From Candidatus Woesearchaeota archaeon (GTDB lineage Archaea > Nanobdellota > Nanobdellia > Woesearchaeales > UBA9642), in assembly GCA_026002815.1 (NCBI GenBank), contig BPGB01000011.1:2280-26279 (forward strand): 24,000 nt of DNA. The letters are read 5' to 3'. Position numbers and translations under genes: made by a program. Positions 8,851 to 15,537 of this stretch are shown one piece after another. Under the pieces are notes generated by a model, which was given only the letters and a program-made list of their open reading frames with translations, had not been told where the DNA came from and did no database searches. Each line of letters opens with the position of its first letter. Within the stretch, counting starts at the first letter, position 1.

Positions 8851-9000
8851 ATGACAGACAGAATTGCAAAACCGTTTTTGAAGTGGGCAGGTGGTAAAAC
8901 TCAGCTTATAAACACTATTGAAAATGCTTTGCCCAAAGACATTTACAGTAACAAATTCACATACATTGAGCCCTTTGTTGGAAGTGGTGCAGTTTTATAA
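8851..9000 (+). pseudogene. dam: 5' fragment of a Dam-type (D12 class) N6-adenine DNA methyltransferase gene, truncated after motif I
   Basis: Translates as [59 protein letters not shown] and EPFVGSGAV (the FxGxG SAM-binding motif) are the hallmark N-terminal motifs of Dam-family enzymes. The reading frame ends at the IS left end, and no DPPY-type catalytic half follows anywhere downstream. Confidence 0.8.
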
Positions 9001-9014
9001 AACGGAGCGTAAAA

Positions 9015-9037
9015 CCCACAAATCTTTAGTTTGTGGG
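9015..9037 (+). repeat. IS200/IS605 left-end subterminal hairpin
   Basis: CCCACAAA-TCTTTAG-TTTGTGGG: a perfect 8-bp stem with a 7-nt loop, ~15 nt inside the dam/IS junction. It has the same loop and the same first four stem pairs as the hairpin at 10110-10132. Confidence 0.7.
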
Positions 9038-9047
9038 ATGTAAGCGA

Positions 9048-9134
9048 CTAGCCCTGATTGAGAATATACTCACGAATGGTATCAGGAGAAGCCTCACCAA
9101 TTGAGCAAACGAAATAACCATCTGAACGAAACTT
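9048..9134 (-). pseudogene. tnpA: 3' remnant of IS200-type Y1 transposase gene
   Basis: The minus strand reads (stop)KFRSDGYFVCSIGEASPDTIREYILNQG*. The GYFV.S.G....I..YI.NQ pattern is the conserved C-terminal end of IS200/IS605 TnpA. An in-frame TAA (9135-9137) cuts it off upstream, so only 28 codons remain. Confidence 0.65.
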
Positions 9135-9144
9135 TTACAAAAAC

Positions 9145-9175
9145 TTGAAATATGTGTGAATAATTAGTATCTTTG
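9145..9175 (+). promoter_or_regulatory. Bacteroidota-type promoter candidate for the endonuclease gene (TTG, 20-nt spacer, TAtcTTTG)
   Basis: TTG at 9145-9147 and TATCTTTG at 9168-9175 fit the -33 TTTG / -7 TAnnTTTG architecture. The ATG at 9180 falls where the transcription start would be, which suggests a leaderless mRNA. Confidence 0.4.
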
Positions 9176-9179
9176 CATT

Positions 9180-9887
9180 ATGAAAAATGAAGTTTACATA
9201 TACGGTTTAAAGTGTCCTGAAAAGGGTGTTATTAGGTATATCGGCAAAAGCAAAAACCCCAAAGCAAGATACCATACACATTTAAGTCATTCCAAAGCAG
9301 AAAGATATGATAACATTCATCTTTACAGGTGGATTGCTAAACTTTTAAGAAACGAGTTAAAACCTGAATTAATCATATTGGATAGTTGTAGTAACACAGA
9401 TTGGAAGGAGAAAGAGAAAGAATGGATTAATAAATATGGATTAGACAATTTGCTGAATATGAATGAAGGTGGGATTGAACCGCCAGATAATACAGGTTTT
9501 AGATGGTCAGAAGAACAAAAAGCAAATCATTCATCACATAAAAGAAAAGGTAAACCACAATGGACGAATATTCCGCATCCACTTTTAGGCAAAGAACATC
9601 CTGCTAAAGGTCAAAAACGTTCTAAAGAGTTTTGCGAATTAATGAAAAAACAAAGATTAGAAAACAATGGTATGAAAGGTGTAAAACTTTCTAAAGAACG
9701 TATAGAACAGATTAAAGAGGTTAATTCAAAGAGGGTGGCTCTACTTGATGATAACGGAAACATACAAAAAGAATATAATTCTCAATCAGAAGCGGCACAG
9801 GATTTAGGTTTACACCATTCGGCAATAGGGAGAGTTTGTAAAGGAGAATACAAACATACAAAAGGACATAAGTTTAAATGGATATGA
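9180..9887 (+). CDS. GIY-YIG homing endonuclease with NUMOD3-like repeats and a C-terminal NUMOD1/IENR1-type helix-turn-helix
   Basis: 235-aa intact ORF. GIY-YIG motifs are VYIYGL ... IRYIGKS ... KARYHTH ... EKEWI ... LLNMNEGG. The middle region has GKxHxxKGxKxS-type NUMOD3 repeats (LLGKEHPAKGQKRSKE, GMKGVKLSKERIEQIK). The C-terminus YNSQSEAAQDLGLHHSAIGRVCKGEYKHTKGHKFKW is a typical HEG DNA-binding HTH. Confidence 0.85.
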   Translation: MKNEVYIYGLKCPEKGVIRYIGKSKNPKARYHTHLSHSKAERYDNIHLYRWIAKLLRNELKPELIILDSCSNTDWKEKEKEWINKYGLDNLLNMNEGGIEPPDNTGFRWSEEQKANHSSHKRKGKPQWTNIPHPLLGKEHPAKGQKRSKEFCELMKKQRLENNGMKGVKLSKERIEQIKEVNSKRVALLDDNGNIQKEYNSQSEAAQDLGLHHSAIGRVCKGEYKHTKGHKFKWI

Positions 9888-10135
9888 ATAGCCCCAAAAC
9901 TTGTAATGTGTGTGGATGGATAAATCAAGATTTAAATCTTTCGGTTCGTGAATGGACTTGCAAAAATGGACATAAATTAGACCGTGATTTAAATGCAGCA
10001 AAGGTCATTCTGAAAGAAGGATTGAAAATAATATCGGGTGGGACGCTCGATAACACGGATGGAGATGGTGTAAGAAGTAGTAATACTCAACTATCTGCGA
10101 AGTCCGAAGCCCATTTGTCTTTAGCAAATGGGTAG
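9878..10135 (+). pseudogene. tnpB: 3' remnant of tnpB (zinc-ribbon plus last RuvC motif only)
   Basis: Reads ..SPKTCNVCGWINQDLNLSVREWTCKNGHKLDRDLNAAKVILKEG...SAKSEAH..*. The C..CG...L.LS.R.W.C......DRD.NAA pattern is the TnpB/OrfB zinc-ribbon and RuvC-III region. Stops lie immediately upstream in frame, the second Cys pair is incomplete (CKNGH), and about 300 N-terminal codons are missing. Confidence 0.8.
10110..10132 (+). repeat. IS200/IS605 right-end subterminal hairpin
   Basis: CCCATTTG-TCTTTAG-CAAATGGG: an 8-bp stem with a loop identical to the left-end hairpin. It overlaps the last codons of the tnpB remnant, as expected for an IS605-type right end. Confidence 0.7.
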
Positions 10136-10156
10136 TTCACTTAAACCTTAAAAACA

Positions 10157-12589
10157 GTGGGGGGTAAATTAAAATACACAAACAATGGTATAGAAAGAAT
10201 CAGTTCTACCAATAGAAAATTCTTTTATCCATATAAAACAATTCAAAATAATAAAGAAAGCCCTGTTAATTTTACTGGATATCTTAAAGGCTCTTCTACA
10301 GTTTCAAATCCATATAATTTAATTCCTTCACATACCATCACTACTACCAACATGGCAGGTCCTATTCTTGCTAATGGACAACTTTTATTACCAAATACCG
10401 GAGATTATTATTTTGAAAAAATTCCTGTAGTAGAAAAAAGACTATTTCAAAAAGGAGGAACAATAGATACACTCTTTGTATCTAATCCCAAGGACTCAAG
10501 GTTAAAGGCTTATAAAGATAGTTTAATGTTGTATAATGCTAGTAAAGAATATGAAGGTAAATTACCTGTAATATCAGTTGAAGCTGTCAGATATATTATG
10601 AGACCCGGACAACCAAACTCTGAATATTATTATAATAAAGTTGCAACTTTACCAAATAATGATCCTATTGGTTATTATGTAGAAAAACCAACTCCATATA
10701 TTACAAATTATTATCCAAAACATGCAAAACCAAAACAACCAGTAGTTTATAAACCTAACCATTTAGAACTTCAAAAACTTTCCACACTTCCATCCAATCC
10801 AATTTTTAACCCCCCTAACCCTCAACCAAAATCCATAATACCCCCAAGAACTAGTATAAACTGGGAAACTGAAAAGAGCAATAGAAAATACTATACAAAA
10901 AGTTTTGACCCAAAATCTGAAATTGAAAAATTATGGAATCCTGTTATTAAAAGAACCAATGAATTAAGATTAAAACATCCCCCTGCTATTACAAAAAAAT
11001 GTGATTCAAGATATAAATATAATGATTGTCCGGTATTTAAAGAAGAAAGAATAAAAAAATTTAAAAACAAATATCAAAGTGGTGGTTATCAGTGGTCAAC
11101 AGAAGACCCAGAGAATTATCGGCAACCATTAATTATTCCAGATGCAGTTGTGATTCCAACTGATGTATTAAAACCTTCTATAAAGGACTATTCAATAACA
11201 CAGGACTATCCAATAACACATAATGAATATCCTCCTATACAACATCCTGGATATATTAAGCAATTACCAAAAGGAAGTCTTCTTAAAAAATTTCTGTTTG
11301 CTCCTCTTGCAACATCATTAGGAGTAAAAGAAGGAAATATTCCAGATATGTTTCTAAGTTTGCCTGCTCATACTGGAGCTGCAGCAATAGAAACAGCAAA
11401 AAATATATCACATCCAATAAGAACTATAAAAACTCTGGGAAAAGCAGGAATAAATTTTATAACAGACTTATCTGGGGAACAAAATCCTTATCCTGGAAGT
11501 ACTTCTAAAGCTCTTGATATTATACTTGATGCATTAGGTACAGTACCATTATCACCAGGACGTCAACTGACAAGTAAATTAATAGAATTACCAAAAAATG
11601 AATTACGTGAACTTGCTTACACAATTGGGACACAATCAGAACATCCATATCGATCTACAGAACAGATAATAAGAGGTATAAAAGATTATAAAGATAACAT
11701 CAAACGAAGATTACACAATGAACCACCAGAATATTATGATCTTAATTACACAGGTGATTACTCAGGACGTGTGGATCTTTTAAAAGCATATTTAAAACAA
11801 GACTATACAGGTCTTACACCATCAAATCTCCCACTTTCTACATATCAAGAACTAATTCAGGGGAAAACTCCATACATGAAATTTAAATTACCATTATATG
11901 ATGATAGCCCAGCAAATTTATTAGAACTTGAAATAAGGACTCCATCAAAAGACCTTAATATTTTTCAACAGCTTAAAACTATAGAAGAAGAAATTAAAAA
12001 AAAGGGAAGATTTGAAGCAGGTGTGGATGTGGGTCTACTTCCACCAGAAACTAAAGCTTATTTAAGTAACTATCGTGCACCAACATCATTTAACATTGCA
12101 GGACATGAAATATTAATAATACCAGGGGGAAAATTAGGACATAAATTAATATTTACTGACCACTGGGGGTTCATAAATGAAGTTAAAAGACCTGGATTTC
12201 CAAAAGGAAATTATATAAGGAAATGGAGGGTGAACAGTAATGATATAGGTAAACCAATTGTACCTGCCTTTCTGCAGCCAAAATTAATGGGAATGATAGG
12301 AAAACCATTTATACTTCAAAATGAGATAGATTTGGCACTTCCAAAAACTGTAGCTGGTAAAAAAAGACTGGCTCAAGATATTGGTGGATTATCTATGTTA
12401 AGAAGAATAGACAAAAGAATATATGACTCGAAAAAAAGTATGGTGCCAGAAAAGGTATTAGGAGAAACCGAAATGGATGTATTAAATTTAATGGACCAAT
12501 TAAGAGACAAAATTAGTAAAACACACTATAATTTCAAACATGGTGGTAAATATACTCGAATATCACCAAAGAAAAATAAGAAAATATAA
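10157..12589 (+). CDS. Large virion-associated protein of unknown function (Pro-rich segment; recurring aromatic-x-x-GG motif); possible internal/ejected protein
   Basis: 810-aa ORF. The frame opens at 10145, right at the IS right end. Its only early start is GTG 10157, and the first ATG is ~62 codons further in. The Pro-rich tract is KPKQPVVYKPN...NPIFNPPNPQPKSIIPP. The motifs FQKGG, YQSGG and FKHGG recur. No enzymatic motif recognised. Confidence 0.55.
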   Translation: MGGKLKYTNNGIERISSTNRKFFYPYKTIQNNKESPVNFTGYLKGSSTVSNPYNLIPSHTITTTNMAGPILANGQLLLPNTGDYYFEKIPVVEKRLFQKGGTIDTLFVSNPKDSRLKAYKDSLMLYNASKEYEGKLPVISVEAVRYIMRPGQPNSEYYYNKVATLPNNDPIGYYVEKPTPYITNYYPKHAKPKQPVVYKPNHLELQKLSTLPSNPIFNPPNPQPKSIIPPRTSINWETEKSNRKYYTKSFDPKSEIEKLWNPVIKRTNELRLKHPPAITKKCDSRYKYNDCPVFKEERIKKFKNKYQSGGYQWSTEDPENYRQPLIIPDAVVIPTDVLKPSIKDYSITQDYPITHNEYPPIQHPGYIKQLPKGSLLKKFLFAPLATSLGVKEGNIPDMFLSLPAHTGAAAIETAKNISHPIRTIKTLGKAGINFITDLSGEQNPYPGSTSKALDIILDALGTVPLSPGRQLTSKLIELPKNELRELAYTIGTQSEHPYRSTEQIIRGIKDYKDNIKRRLHNEPPEYYDLNYTGDYSGRVDLLKAYLKQDYTGLTPSNLPLSTYQELIQGKTPYMKFKLPLYDDSPANLLELEIRTPSKDLNIFQQLKTIEEEIKKKGRFEAGVDVGLLPPETKAYLSNYRAPTSFNIAGHEILIIPGGKLGHKLIFTDHWGFINEVKRPGFPKGNYIRKWRVNSNDIGKPIVPAFLQPKLMGMIGKPFILQNEIDLALPKTVAGKKRLAQDIGGLSMLRRIDKRIYDSKKSMVPEKVLGETEMDVLNLMDQLRDKISKTHYNFKHGGKYTRISPKKNKKI

Positions 12590-14004: not shown

Positions 14005-15537
14005 ATGCTTTTTACAATGGGTGGGTTAAAACCCACAACAATTACAGAAGGATGGGGTGGTAATTCAGTTAATTCAACCCACCTTATTAGAACTTATGGA
14101 TTGGATAAACCACATGATTTATCCTACAATGCAACAAATATTGCCCAATTGTTTTCAGCTACAGATAGGTATAAAGACAAACCACTTATTGGTATGACTG
14201 AGGCTAAAGGAAAGAAAATTTATCTTTCCAGTCGTCAGTACACCTGGAAACTTATTGGACATATGAAACAAGCTGCCAGGGTTACTTCTGTTGTAGAAAC
14301 ATCTACAGAACCTGGACGTAATGAACAAACATTTAAAATCCGTTTAGATAAAGGTTGGTTTGATAAACCTGATATTATTCAGGGACAAGCTGCAGGAAAT
14401 AATTTTCCGCTGGAAGTTATATCAAAAACCAGGGTTGGACTTGAATGGGAGTATGAAGTTCAACTTCATGGTTCAGATCCTAATAGGTCATTTCCTGTTG
14501 CTGGTCTTCAGATAAATCAGGAATTTTACAAAGTTGGTACTACTGTAAGGGATGAAAGTAATAATGAGTATGGTACAATGCAATTTAATTCTATCTTTGA
14601 ACTAAGGAACCAGCTTGGTAATGTTGCTGAGAAGATTGAATTTACTGACAAAGCTTTGAGGATTGATAAAAACTCCGGTGAAGTTGTACAGAAATTGAAA
14701 TCATGGAGAGTCCCATTTTTGGATAATAAAGGTAAAAAGTATTATAACTTTATGCCGATGGCTGAAGCTGAAGTTTTTGAAAATATTTATCAGGATATTG
14801 AATGGGCACTTAACTTTGGGCGTAAAGGTCTTAAGATGGATATTGTAAATAATGAAGGTTATGTAAGAACTACTGGCCCTGGTTTCAGACAGCAATCTGA
14901 AGATGGTCATGTTTTGACCCACAATGGAAACCTTACCCTTTCAAGATTGGATGAATTCTTAACTTCTATCTATCGTGGTAGGAAAGATGCAACACCTGCA
15001 AACAGAAAAATTGTTCTTTCAACTGGTGAAATGGGTGCAAAAATGTTCCATGAGATGGTTCTTTCAGATGCAACTTCATTTTTAACTCTTAATGATTCTC
15101 TCTATATTGATGGTAAAGACTTTAGGCACCTTTCTTATGGTGTACAATTTACTCATTACAGGGGGTCAAATGGTCTGGATGTAACAGTAATGCTTGACCC
15201 TTCTAAAGATAATCCAATATATTGTCCACAAACACATCCTGTAATTACTGATGCTTGCATTGACTCATGGAGGATGGATATAATGGATTTTGGCCAGACA
15301 GCACAGAGTTCTGGTGAAACTGGTGATAATATTTCAATGGTATGTGAAAAATTTGCTGATTATTACTTTACTACAGCTGGAAAATGGGACCCAAAGACTG
15401 GAATGCCAATTAATGATGGTTCACATGGAGTATCTGGTGGAGTTTCAGGATATGCAACATATGTAGAAAAATCATTTGGTCTAATGATTCGTGATATTTC
15501 AAGATGTGGTGTAATAAAACTTAATTTTGATAACTAA
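14005..15537 (+). CDS. Major capsid protein candidate (by position after the scaffold-like gene)
   Basis: 510-aa ORF directly after the scaffold-like gene. The size fits large HK97-type capsid proteins. An alternative start is at 14017 (MGGLKP). No diagnostic motif recognised. Confidence 0.45.
   Translation: MLFTMGGLKPTTITEGWGGNSVNSTHLIRTYGLDKPHDLSYNATNIAQLFSATDRYKDKPLIGMTEAKGKKIYLSSRQYTWKLIGHMKQAARVTSVVETSTEPGRNEQTFKIRLDKGWFDKPDIIQGQAAGNNFPLEVISKTRVGLEWEYEVQLHGSDPNRSFPVAGLQINQEFYKVGTTVRDESNNEYGTMQFNSIFELRNQLGNVAEKIEFTDKALRIDKNSGEVVQKLKSWRVPFLDNKGKKYYNFMPMAEAEVFENIYQDIEWALNFGRKGLKMDIVNNEGYVRTTGPGFRQQSEDGHVLTHNGNLTLSRLDEFLTSIYRGRKDATPANRKIVLSTGEMGAKMFHEMVLSDATSFLTLNDSLYIDGKDFRHLSYGVQFTHYRGSNGLDVTVMLDPSKDNPIYCPQTHPVITDACIDSWRMDIMDFGQTAQSSGETGDNISMVCEKFADYYFTTAGKWDPKTGMPINDGSHGVSGGVSGYATYVEKSFGLMIRDISRCGVIKLNFDN

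Follow-up and report, generated by a model that had tools for sequence, protein, structure and literature searches.

A homing endonuclease gene in the place of tnpB in an IS200/IS605-family element of a crAss-like phage, followed by an omega-RNA-type module

In the stretch of phage DNA analysed here (24,000 nucleotides, hereafter the window), an endonuclease gene is directly followed by the last part of a tnpB gene and by a hairpin. The locus raises the question of what this remnant is and why it begins where it does. The original prediction held that the tnpB deletion stops just where the omega-RNA-encoding region begins, and that an orphan omega-RNA might still be produced from it. In our estimate (a probability of about three in four), positions 9887-10165 comprise 246 bp at the right of an IS200/IS605-family element, which is non-autonomous, and 25 bp of phage flank. 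The element itself is probably a nested selfish element, in which a homing endonuclease gene (HEG) behind the apparent tnpB promoter stands where codons 1-315 of tnpB would be.

Anatomy of the element

The element is 1142 bp long and occupies positions 8999-10140 within crAss-like phage DNA; all its features lie on the forward strand, except for the tnpA remnant. It is directly preceded by TTTAT (8994-8998), the TAM and target site. About 30 copies with otherwise unrelated upstream sequences all carry this motif before the left end, it also precedes the HEG-bearing copies L086, L160, L163 and L081, and it is the TAM of GstTnpB2/ISGst2 (Meers et al.); insertion 3' of such a short conserved motif, without target duplication, agrees with the IS200/IS605 family. 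The left end (LE, 8999-9047) carries a subterminal hairpin at 9015-9037 (CCCACAAA-TCTTTAG-TTTGTGGG), whose arms were found as an inverted repeat in a repeat search of the window. The right end (RE) carries another one at 10110-10132, with the arms CCCATTTG (10110-10117) and CAAATGGG (10125-10132) and the same loop TCTTTAG; its survival had been correctly predicted. Imperfect subterminal hairpins at both ends and the lack of terminal inverted repeats agree with the IS605 group. The last base of the element is 10140 (...GGGTAGTTCAC), right after which the flanks of about 50 different copies diverge. On the left side, the insertion has ended a gene of a D12-class (Dam-like) DNA adenine methyltransferase, of which a 49-aa N-terminal stub is left on the forward strand (8851-9000; PF02086, E 9.4e-10); the remainder of this gene was not found after the element, and past 10140 all frames run into a stop within 3-8 codons.

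The outer parts of the element with its target site, 8994-9124 and 9895-10140, match intact 1754-bp elements of other phage contigs with 100% identity: the former to positions 2498-2628 of L002, whose element encodes a TnpA of 137 aa and a TnpB of 396 aa, the latter over 246 nt to intact elements in the IMG/VR contigs L001, L002 and L005. Between them, the HEG stands in place of 1.37 kb of tnpA and tnpB. What is left of tnpA, the Y1 transposase gene, is the stop and the final ~25-27 codons on the reverse strand (9048-9124; …GYFVCSIGEASPDTIREYILNQG and stop), 96% identical to residues 111-137 of the L002 TnpA by tblastn; the deletion joint in tnpA is marked by the sole two mismatches to L002, at 9126 and 9128. 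The tnpB remnant (9896-10135, codons 316-396 and the stop), identical in nucleotides to L001, L002 and L005, encodes the zinc ribbon, the RuvC-III DRDxNAA motif and the variable C-terminus; the open reading frame 9878-10135 matches the C-terminal TNB/zinc-ribbon domain of TnpB (PF07282, E 2.3e-9) and corresponds to residues 316-396 of the intact 396-aa protein. The original prediction was therefore right in stating that most of tnpB is gone, that its C-terminal part is kept, and that this part shares the strand of the endonuclease frame and directly follows it. The stretch that it set at 9887 to ~10145 is real, but homology starts at 9895/9896 and the element ends at 10140. With remnants only of both genes (TnpA residues ~112-137, TnpB residues 316-396), and with full tnpA and tnpB present in relatives sharing its ends, the element is a derivative member of the IS200/IS605 family and is not autonomous; because both genes are remnants, it cannot move or cut alone.

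The HEG (9180-9887) encodes a GIY-YIG homing endonuclease of 235 aa, recognised by PF01541 (30.1 bits, cut-off 22.6) and PF22083 (39 bits, cut-off 27), with an I-HmuI/NUMOD-like C-terminal DNA-binding domain; 50 homologues with intact frames were found. It is free-standing, i.e., a separate frame with its own start, around which no group I or group II intron model matched in an Rfam search of the window. The preceding region, 9125-9179, aligns to the tnpA-tnpB intergenic region of the intact L002 element (CTTTTACAAAACTTG…TAGTATATTTG) with 71% identity. It contains the left copy of a 22-nt direct repeat (9140-9161) and a promoter-like site (9145-9173) with a -33-like TTG(AAA) at 9145-9150 and the box TATCTTTG at 9168-9175 of the TAnnTTTG type, which is the -7 box of Bacteroidota. 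Thus, the HEG appears to use the tnpB promoter.

The omega-RNA-type scaffold, its predicted guide and the possible supply of TnpB

The omega-RNA-type scaffold with the RE hairpin spans positions 10033-10140. It consists of stem A (10033-10051), a helix CGGAT (10056-10060)/GTCCG (10102-10106) around a bipartite stem (~10070-10097), then the RE hairpin and finally ...TAGTTCAC. Among 47 intact elements, 92.1% of the cells are paired vs 27-44% in slid controls (0/500 shuffles), and 18 of the 29 scaffold pairs show compensatory double changes; the RE hairpin covaries between subfamilies. The minimum free energy fold contains the same helices (z = -3.2); folding and covariation against full-length elements had been proposed as a check of the original prediction, and both support a conserved structure. 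There was no Rfam 15 match in this region, either in the window at the gathering threshold or in 8900-10300 at E<=10. The covariance model built here (R1) matched at full length at 10033-10140 (98.5 bits, E 4e-19) and also finds held-out copies. Synonymous-codon identity climbs to ~0.8 no earlier than tnpB codon ~361; in 9896-10032 it is 0.59-0.67 vs a baseline of ~0.58.

The one consistent feature of omega-RNAs is a hairpin within 10 nt of the scaffold 3' end (Nety et al.), and the module under discussion lies at the tnpB 3' end and RE, its hairpin stopping 8 nt short of the element boundary. Its size of 108 nt agrees with that of known scaffolds (106 nt in AmaTnpB; 79 to 466 nt for processed scaffolds in general, Nety et al.), which we counted as support. 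The RE hairpin is predicted to serve TnpA as a single-stranded DNA substrate and, in the omega-RNA, to form the 3' stem-loop. Judging from the sequence, the scaffold and the right end are complete, unmutated and identical to those of intact elements. As covariation, the covariance-model match and the rise of synonymous-site conservation agree on ~10033, the predicted coincidence of the deletion end with the omega-RNA start was not confirmed: 138 nt of ordinary coding sequence separate the remnant start from that of the scaffold.

Since the element ends at 10140, the predicted 16-nt guide is TTAAACCTTAAAAACA (10141-10156), the flank directly outside RE; the role of this stretch is inferred from the known mechanism of TnpB (Meers et al., Nety et al.). 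The guide formerly proposed, 10146-10165, was 5 nt off and was taken for the first nucleotides of the 810-aa gene, while 10141-10156 adjoins the GTG start of this frame (10157) on the 5' side. The window contains no second TAM-adjacent match to the guide. No terminator-like site was found between the HEG and RE, and the order of promoter, frame and omega-RNA module would match that of the transcript of an intact element; it is therefore plausible that an orphan omega-RNA is made here and could serve a TnpB provided in trans. The predicted production of such an RNA by read-through from the HEG promoter thus gains from the completeness of the scaffold and the lack of a terminator-like site, but the break point is not accounted for by where the RNA starts.

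As to the source of TnpB, no intact tnpB is present in the 24-kb window, in 2.3 kb of extra flank or in the adjacent Logan contigs. Sphingobacterium genomes and other phage contigs contain many related intact copies, the bacterial TnpBs found being only 78-85% identical to the cognate TnpB. An exact match to the RE 34-mer was found 62 times in GTDB genomes, most of them Sphingobacterium, with intact tnpA/tnpB and no HEG. One contig holds an intact tnpB (L010) together with a HEG-bearing copy (L164), the scaffolds of the two belonging to different subfamilies.

The recurrent HEG-tnpB junction and its possible origin

The junction at 9895/9896 is conserved across the HEG clade. All HEG relatives of at least 52% identity with a readable flank (about ten contexts: L163, L083-85, L086, L087/88, L160-162, L089, L164/165, L090 and L042) continue within 0-11 nt into tnpB at about codon 316, the codons at the junction ranging from 293 to 317 among homologues of 52-91% identity. 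The left neighbour of the HEG varies: it may be tnpB 1-369, a tnpB N-terminus of 44-50 aa, a full or a partial tnpA, or an Arc-like RHH frame. Where the identity of the homologue is 45% or lower (L095, L167-L181), no tnpB remnant follows the HEG. One of these, L171, has a tnpB fragment ~1 kb upstream, on the opposite strand. A second type of HEG (L081, L091-94), which shares only the C-terminal DNA-binding half, occupies the same position in tnpB, 15 nt away and in the opposite orientation. Probably, the position of the break was set by the conserved junction of the HEG clade and not by the omega-RNA start.

The HEG and its flanks differ in history. Between the window and L163, the promoter regions (9125-9179 in the window) are 92.5% and the HEGs 87.7% identical, but the tnpB remnants only 80.9%, that of the window being 100% identical to one intact element and that of L163 94.8% identical to another; this suggests that the HEG spreads among IS copies. 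HEG-less elements with intact tnpB and HEG-bearing ones with identical flanking element sequence occupy different genomic sites, and no HEG-free allele was found at the site of any HEG-bearing copy. The 30 nt with the highest conservation in the whole tnpB gene (0.88 vs a mean of 0.74) lie 7 codons downstream of the junction. We suppose that the endonuclease may cut intact tnpB near this zinc-ribbon-coding stretch, and that the HEG may be copied in by recombination, for which the 3' part of tnpB would act as the right homology arm and thereby fix the junction; we lean slightly towards this route of spread. The codons 316-396 left in the window are the part downstream of the fixed junction, and a further deletion of ~370 bp has removed tnpA codons 1-~110. 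As for the RNA, the HEG transcript would continue into the omega-RNA module, a TnpB from an intact copy, if present in the host or in a co-infecting phage, would process and load the omega-RNA, and the loaded TnpB would cut "empty" TTTAT-TTAAACCTTAAAAACA sites, so that the composite element would be retained and homing favoured; this scheme is possible, although we would sooner bet against it. More doubtful still is the broad picture of a clade of classical, protein-guided GIY-YIG endonucleases specialised on phage IS605 tnpB, which overwrites the gene behind its own promoter and in every case keeps the omega-RNA and both ends. Such a hyperparasite would convert intact copies by homing, borrow TnpA to move, and borrow TnpB, through the orphan omega-RNA, to be reinstated at, or to spread to, empty sites.

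The constant right junction could instead reflect a need for the whole 245 nt, e.g., as a longer omega-RNA. According to this explanation, selection for an orphan omega-RNA fixed the break point, and the entire remnant is an omega-RNA gene for a TnpB encoded elsewhere. The completeness of the scaffold and its identity to intact elements agree with it, as do the 466 nt reached by the longest known omega-RNAs, a possible pairing of the invariant TGGAC (9953-9957) with GTTCA (10135-10139), and the earlier proposal that PATE omega-RNAs act in trans (Meers et al.). Moreover, at least six independent shortened copies break in a 48-nt interval just upstream of 9896, and the 138 nt between junction and scaffold have been lost in no HEG-bearing lineage. 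In three shortened copies without a HEG (L029, L049 and L012), the break likewise falls in the 45 nt before this point, for which HEG homing alone is insufficient, unless these copies derive from HEG-bearing ones; nor does homing account for the layout of L163 (tnpB 1-369, HEG, tnpB 317-396). However, 9896-10032 shows neither covariation nor extra synonymous-site constraint, no more than 187 and 134 nt are left in the deletion derivatives L075 and L041, respectively, and the HNH gene inserted in L038 sits immediately ahead of the 110-nt module and leaves it intact. The junction is tied to the HEG stop codon in all lineages, and HEG biology suffices for it without any RNA; we thus regard RNA selection as an unlikely cause of the break.

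The element might also be a passive, recent wreck, a leftover of random deletion or insertion that will decay, with no omega-RNA or HEG homing at work. The 100% identity to intact copies leaves no time for decay, and intactness alone proves nothing; the window lacks tnpB, and neither relatives of this phage nor empty insertion sites were found. We nevertheless consider a wreck improbable: about ten contexts show this architecture, with HEGs of as little as 52% identity and remnants of different tnpB subfamilies, unlike a one-off accident, and the HEG frames are intact throughout. It is least credible, with very little in our judgement to recommend it, that the remnant is kept as a protein of 81-88 aa (zinc ribbon and RuvC-III), translationally coupled to the HEG and modulating TnpB or the omega-RNA. 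A start codon does overlap the HEG stop (ATGA) in the window, L086, L163 and L090, and gene callers give frames of 71-88 aa; but L042, L087 and L029 have no in-frame start, L087 is apparently frameshifted in the C-terminal part with the RNA-level sequence kept, the ATG is a by-product of the xxA-TGA ending, and neither RuvC-I/II nor the WED/REC domains are part of the fragment.

Significance and comparison with known systems

That degenerate IS605 elements carry orphan omega-RNAs is an already accepted idea, and this point alone is modest. A classical homing endonuclease recurrently occupying the slot of an RNA-guided one, with a fixed junction, appears to be undescribed, as no account of it turned up in the literature that could be searched; a 2026 review argued that protein-guided endonucleases are ill-suited to serve transposons. 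If the HEG truly targets tnpB, this would be a three-layer conflict of phage, transposon and HEG and a natural system for studying whether selection acts on omega-RNAs in trans and what restrains TnpB-bearing transposons in phage populations. A further yield would be a compact natural scaffold of ~110 nt with a TTTAT TAM.

The closest known systems are the IS200/IS605 TnpB/omega-RNA elements, such as ISDra2 and ISGst2 of G. stearothermophilus. They share with the element described here the subterminal LE and RE hairpins, TTTAT 5' of LE, divergent tnpA (Y1) and tnpB (in its intact relatives), a scaffold that overlaps the tnpB 3' end and finishes in the RE hairpin 8 nt short of the boundary, and a guide taken from the flank outside RE. 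In contrast to them, it retains only ~25 codons of tnpA and 81 of tnpB, and the frame behind the apparent tnpB promoter encodes a protein-guided GIY-YIG endonuclease. PATEs, the MITE-like IS605 derivatives whose omega-RNAs need TnpB in trans (Meers et al., 2023), likewise keep LE, RE and the omega-RNA module after loss of the transposase and nuclease genes, TnpA and TnpB being proposed to come from other copies. PATEs have no protein-coding genes, whereas this element belongs to a recurrent HEG-bearing lineage and carries an intact, apparently functional 235-aa HEG, for which reason we rejected its assignment to PATEs.

Free-standing phage GIY-YIG HEGs (Seg/I-TevI-like, with intronless homing) resemble the HEG of the window in the combination of a GIY-YIG and a NUMOD-type DNA-binding domain without an intron, in the location beside a highly conserved coding stretch, and in the mosaic history of insert and flanks. 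Their niche, however, is a conserved phage gene and not tnpB of an IS605 mobile element, and they are simple insertions, while the HEG discussed here replaces ~950 bp. Finally, IStrons, chimeras of a group I intron with IS605 tnpB and omega-RNA (Zedaveinyte et al.), also combine an IS605-type element with a second selfish element on one transcript common with the omega-RNA. The element is not an IStron, as no intron model matched on the window; unlike IStrons, it shows no group I intron detectable with Rfam, has lost tnpB and has a HEG as its partner.

Anatomy of the element

The window carries a non-autonomous IS605-type element in which the nuclease gene is overwritten by a homing endonuclease gene (HEG), while the omega-RNA module and both ends are intact. 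According to Pfam matches, the plus-strand ORF 9180-9887 encodes a GIY-YIG endonuclease of 235 aa with an I-HmuI/NUMOD-like DNA-binding domain, and the plus-strand ORF that it immediately precedes (9878-10135) encodes the TNB/zinc-ribbon C-terminus of TnpB (PF07282). On the minus strand, translation and tblastn revealed the last 27 residues of an IS200-type Y1 transposase (…GYFVCSIGEASPDTIREYILNQG*, 9051-9131). With the 85-aa remnant as query, IMG/VR yielded 113 related loci confirmed by tblastn; 80 of them were kept, most with an open tnpB frame of ~400 aa. The complete element of the intact reference locus, L002, is 1754 bp long and consists of tnpA (137 aa, minus strand) and tnpB (396 aa). 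Positions 8994-9124 and 9895-10140 of the window are 100% identical to it, and the only two mismatches reported for the left block, 9126 and 9128, mark the deletion joint. Given the identity of both outer blocks, the observation behind the original prediction, namely that most of tnpB is gone but its 3' end and the right end survive, is real and far beyond chance.

The TTTAT pentamer directly before the left end (LE) is invariant in ~30 copies with unrelated upstream flanks, and in ~50 copies sequence divergence begins right after …GGGTAGTTCAC, so the element occupies 8999-10140 and its transposon-adjacent motif (TAM) 8994-8998. The TAM of GstTnpB2/ISGst2 is likewise TTTAT (Meers et al.). The right end (RE) had earlier been placed 5 nt too far to the right, since the copies diverge after 10140, and the guide is not formed by the first nucleotides of the 810-aa gene: the predicted guide flank TTAAACCTTAAAAACA (10141-10156) lies directly upstream of the GTG start (10157) of this ORF. 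The occupied site reads …GTTCAC/TTAAACC…, the empty one would read …GCAGTTTTAT/TTAAACCTTAAAAACAG…. On the left, the ORF 8851-9000 (plus strand) encodes the first 49 residues of a D12 (Dam-like) methyltransferase (Pfam match). The sequence 3' of the transposon (10141-10200) does not continue this gene and contains a stop within 3-8 codons in every frame; thus, the rest of the methyltransferase gene was lost rather than merely interrupted.

A 510-aa ORF (14005-15537) matches Crass_capsid, which makes the phage crAss-like. For the 810-aa protein (10157-12589), the sole homologue is the identical sequence in an NCBI MAG (KatS3mg002_1369 [Candidatus Woesearchaeota archaeon], 49.6-kb contig), and the contig appears to be a crAss-like phage contig binned into an archaeal 'Candidatus Woesearchaeota' MAG. 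No relatives of the host phage that could show the uninterrupted site were found: the N-terminus of the 810-aa protein and a portal fragment had no match in IMG/VR, and neither the exact 23-mer of the empty site nor the 30-34-mers of its two flanks occur in viral or JGI metagenome contigs. The Logan assembly of DRR290133 breaks on both sides of the TAM and LE (8946-9043, the ends of contigs L096 and L082) and is unbroken at the RE; the breaks hint that the sample also contains further copies of the left end or a variant free of the IS, and are not interpretable with confidence.

Conserved HEG-tnpB junction

Fifty HEG homologues were found in the protein collection. In every one with 52-91% identity and a readable flank, tnpB codons 293-317 (…SSKTC…) are reached 0-11 nt past the HEG stop. 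The tnpB remnant follows the HEG in L163 (91%), L083/84/85 (76%), L086 (75%), L087/88 (71%), L160-162 (69%), L089 and L164/165 (62% each) and L090 (52%), as well as in L042, whose contig holds only the 3' end of the HEG. Conversely, two ~88-aa remnant proteins, chosen solely for their long contigs, are both preceded by this HEG. C-terminal tnpB remnants of 75-90 aa form 87 clusters. The junction is thus conserved across a HEG clade; homologues of at most 45% identity (L095, L167-L181) have no tnpB remnant after the HEG, and one of them, L171, carries a tnpB fragment ~1 kb upstream on the other strand. What lies to the left of the HEG varies: L163 has tnpB 1-369, L084, L089 and L090 have an N-terminal tnpB piece of 44-50 aa, and the window has a tnpA tail of 25 codons; tnpA is nearly complete in L086 and L160 and reduced to half in L087, and L087/L089 carry an Arc-like RHH ORF. 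This RHH_5 (Arc-like) ORF of 45 aa overlaps the HEG start in both loci (2374-2511 in each); IS605 Arc repressors have been described recently.

A second, different HEG, which has only the C-terminal DNA-binding half in common with the first (63% identity), lies at this tnpB position too, shifted by 15 nt and reversed in orientation; the LE is retained (L081, L091-94, L166). The most conserved 30-nt stretch of tnpB (0.88 vs. a mean of 0.74) follows 7 codons after the junction of the first HEG, and highly conserved coding stretches are the kind of site exploited by homing endonucleases.

As to the origin of the arrangement, the 55 nt preceding the HEG of the window can be aligned to the region between tnpA and tnpB in intact elements (CTTTTACAAAACTTG … TAGTATATTTG-N6-GTG). 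We take this region, from the alignment, to be the tnpB promoter, in which case the HEG ORF appears to stand behind it in place of tnpB codons 1-315. Between the window and L163, the promoter is 92.5% identical, the HEG 87.7% and the tnpB remnant only 80.9%; the closest intact elements also differ, the window remnant being 100% identical to L002 and that of L163 94.8% to L114. The HEG and its flanks therefore have a mosaic history, and the simplest reading is that the HEG clade lives in, and spreads among, tnpB genes of IS605 elements. We suppose, with a probability of about 0.55, that intact tnpB is cleaved by the HEG close to the zinc-ribbon codons and that the HEG is then copied in by recombination, for which the 3' part of tnpB would provide a fixed right-hand homology arm. 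HEG-free alleles were searched for at the insertion sites of the HEG-bearing copies and none was found. No close relative of the HEG was detected among INPHARED phages, where the best TnpB match is a full-length unannotated tnpB of Parabacteroides phage PF672P2.

The HEG is bracketed by a 22-nt direct repeat (9140-9161 and 9896-9917, 19/22 identical), the right copy of which lies in the zinc-ribbon codons. A target-site duplication was rejected, because comparison with L002 places the left copy in the apparent native tnpB promoter; the repeat is at most a microhomology, which may have been used in junction formation or be due to chance.

Three HEG-less truncated copies also end near the junction (L029 at -16, L049 at -25 and L012 at -45 nt), which is only partly accounted for; L012 looks like an L084-type element minus its HEG. 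In-frame 'mini-tnpB' ORFs (L012 3776-4252; P0065, P0067) consist of ~45 N-terminal aa (HTH_OrfB_IS605) fused to ~100 C-terminal aa and may have arisen when an L084/L090-type element lost its HEG. In L163 (668-2769; Logan SRR28113952_14884), the closest HEG relative lies between tnpB 1-369 and a second copy of 317-396, so that tnpB is partially duplicated on either side of the HEG. In L038 (800-2960; IMGVR_UViG_3300034378_000186), two other endonuclease-like ORFs, one of 349 aa and an HNH one of 194 aa, have invaded a related tnpB; the HNH gene is located exactly at the boundary between tnpB codon ~365 and the omega module, and the 110-nt module is intact (102 bits).

The omega-RNA scaffold and the position of the break

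Rfam searches, at the gathering threshold as well as at permissive ones, matched no family to the region or its surroundings, whether omega-RNA, intron or other, so we built an omega-RNA model from the relatives. In an alignment of 52 distinct 3' regions folded with RNAalifold, covarying helices are confined to the last ~110 nt, with none further 5' in the surviving region; a possible pairing of TGGAC (9953-9957) with GTTCA (10135-10139) is invariant in the consensus and hence uninformative. Covariation was tested in 47 elements, with the window and other truncated copies left out, for a structure comprising stem A, a 5-bp enclosing helix, a bipartite stem and the RE hairpin. Paired cells made up 92.1% (27-44% with slid partners), compensatory changes occurred in 18 of 29 pairs, and none of 500 shuffles matched the score of the structure. 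The covariance model derived from this alignment matches window 10033-10140 over the full length of the model (98.5 bits, E 4e-19), a match which Rfam families had not provided. It also recovers held-out truncated and HEG-bearing copies (L163, 117 bits; L042, 108; L089, 104; L160, 86; L087, 84; L081, 36; L086, 30). The helices reappear in the MFE fold of 10033-10160 (z = -3.2). Across 46 intact tnpB genes aligned by codon, synonymous-codon identity stays at ~0.55-0.65 through most of the gene, with 0.59-0.67 for codons 316-360, and leaps to ~0.8 only from codon 361, where amino-acid identity falls to 0.5. Taken together, covariation, covariance model, fold and synonymous sites place the beginning of RNA-level constraint at ~10033. 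A second peak of synonymous-codon identity in the intact relatives (0.80 vs. a baseline of ~0.58; nucleotide conservation 0.87) at mid-gene codons 211-240 (L002 3686-3775) could be an internal RNA or DNA signal.

By analogy, a 108-nt scaffold with a hairpin ending 8 nt before the guide fits known TnpB omega-RNAs: that of AmaTnpB is 106 nt, the published range is 79-466 nt, and the one constant feature is a 3' hairpin within 10 nt of the scaffold's 3' end (Nety et al.).

The claim that the deletion stops just where the omega-RNA region begins did not survive, since the tnpB break (9895/9896) sits 138 nt upstream of the scaffold. The module was correctly recognized as intact, but what coincides with the break is the junction of a HEG clade, not the RNA start. 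Selection for a 245-nt omega-RNA is accordingly an unlikely cause of the boundary. The scaffold is complete and, in alignment with intact relatives, neither truncated nor mutated. That the remnant is a functionless wreck we consider improbable. Less credible still is a small protein made from the remnant ORF: its start codon overlaps the HEG stop (ATGA, 9878-9887) in the window, L086, L163 and L090, but the overlap is absent in L042, L087 and L029, and for this lack of conservation the small protein was rejected as the main explanation.

Possible action in trans and relation to known systems

A promoter-like site is present at 9145-9173, with a box TATCTTTG (9168-9175) fitting TAnnTTTG, the Bacteroidota -7 motif, and no terminator-like site was found between the HEG and the RE. 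In an intact element, TnpB carves the omega-RNA out of the 3' end of its own mRNA (Nety et al.), and the predicted transcript layout of the window element would match this. The occupied site is safe from self-targeting because the guide match is preceded by GTTCAC, not TTTAT, and the window has no other TAM-adjacent guide match.

As for the nuclease, the original prediction had suggested a TnpB encoded elsewhere in the phage or host. Neither the 24-kb window nor a further 2.3 kb of flanking sequence taken from Logan contigs contains an intact tnpB, so TnpB must come from elsewhere; beyond the window, intact relatives do exist, and in three further viral contigs their 3' ends are 100% identical. 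GTDB genomes contain 62 occurrences of the exact RE 34-mer, mostly as multi-copy matches in Sphingobacterium species with intact tnpA/tnpB (TnpB 78-85% identical in amino acids to that of L002), and never with the HEG. Among these loci (L098-L159), Sphingobacterium cavernae, S. litopenaei and S. bovisgrunnientis have it in very many copies, and numerous matches lie at contig ends; it is also found on Patescibacteria/Saccharibacteria-labelled contigs, which may be mis-binned phage or Bacteroidota DNA. As a caution, an intact tnpB (L010) and a HEG-bearing copy (L164) lie together on one viral contig, yet their scaffolds belong to different subfamilies.

Judging from the sequence, the chance that the omega-RNA of the window is made and used in trans is somewhat below even. 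The composite would be movable by TnpA in trans, as copies at five different target sites have kept TAM, LE and RE intact. With TnpB also supplied in trans, the omega-RNA might direct cutting of empty TTTAT-TTAAACCTTAAAAACA sites and thereby favour the retention and spread of the element, which we propose tentatively.

Full-text literature searches turned up no account of classical GIY-YIG HEGs repeatedly nested in tnpB at a fixed junction, and HEG-in-tnpB is not mentioned in a 2026 review of homing endonucleases and OMEGA systems; the lineage is a variant that we did not find described and is worth following up. Its omega-RNA part is unremarkable among IS605/TnpB systems. The element differs from IStrons, an identity that was rejected, in having no intron (Rfam). 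It works like PATEs, for which trans-acting omega-RNAs were proposed (Meers et al.), but, since it encodes a protein, it is not a PATE.
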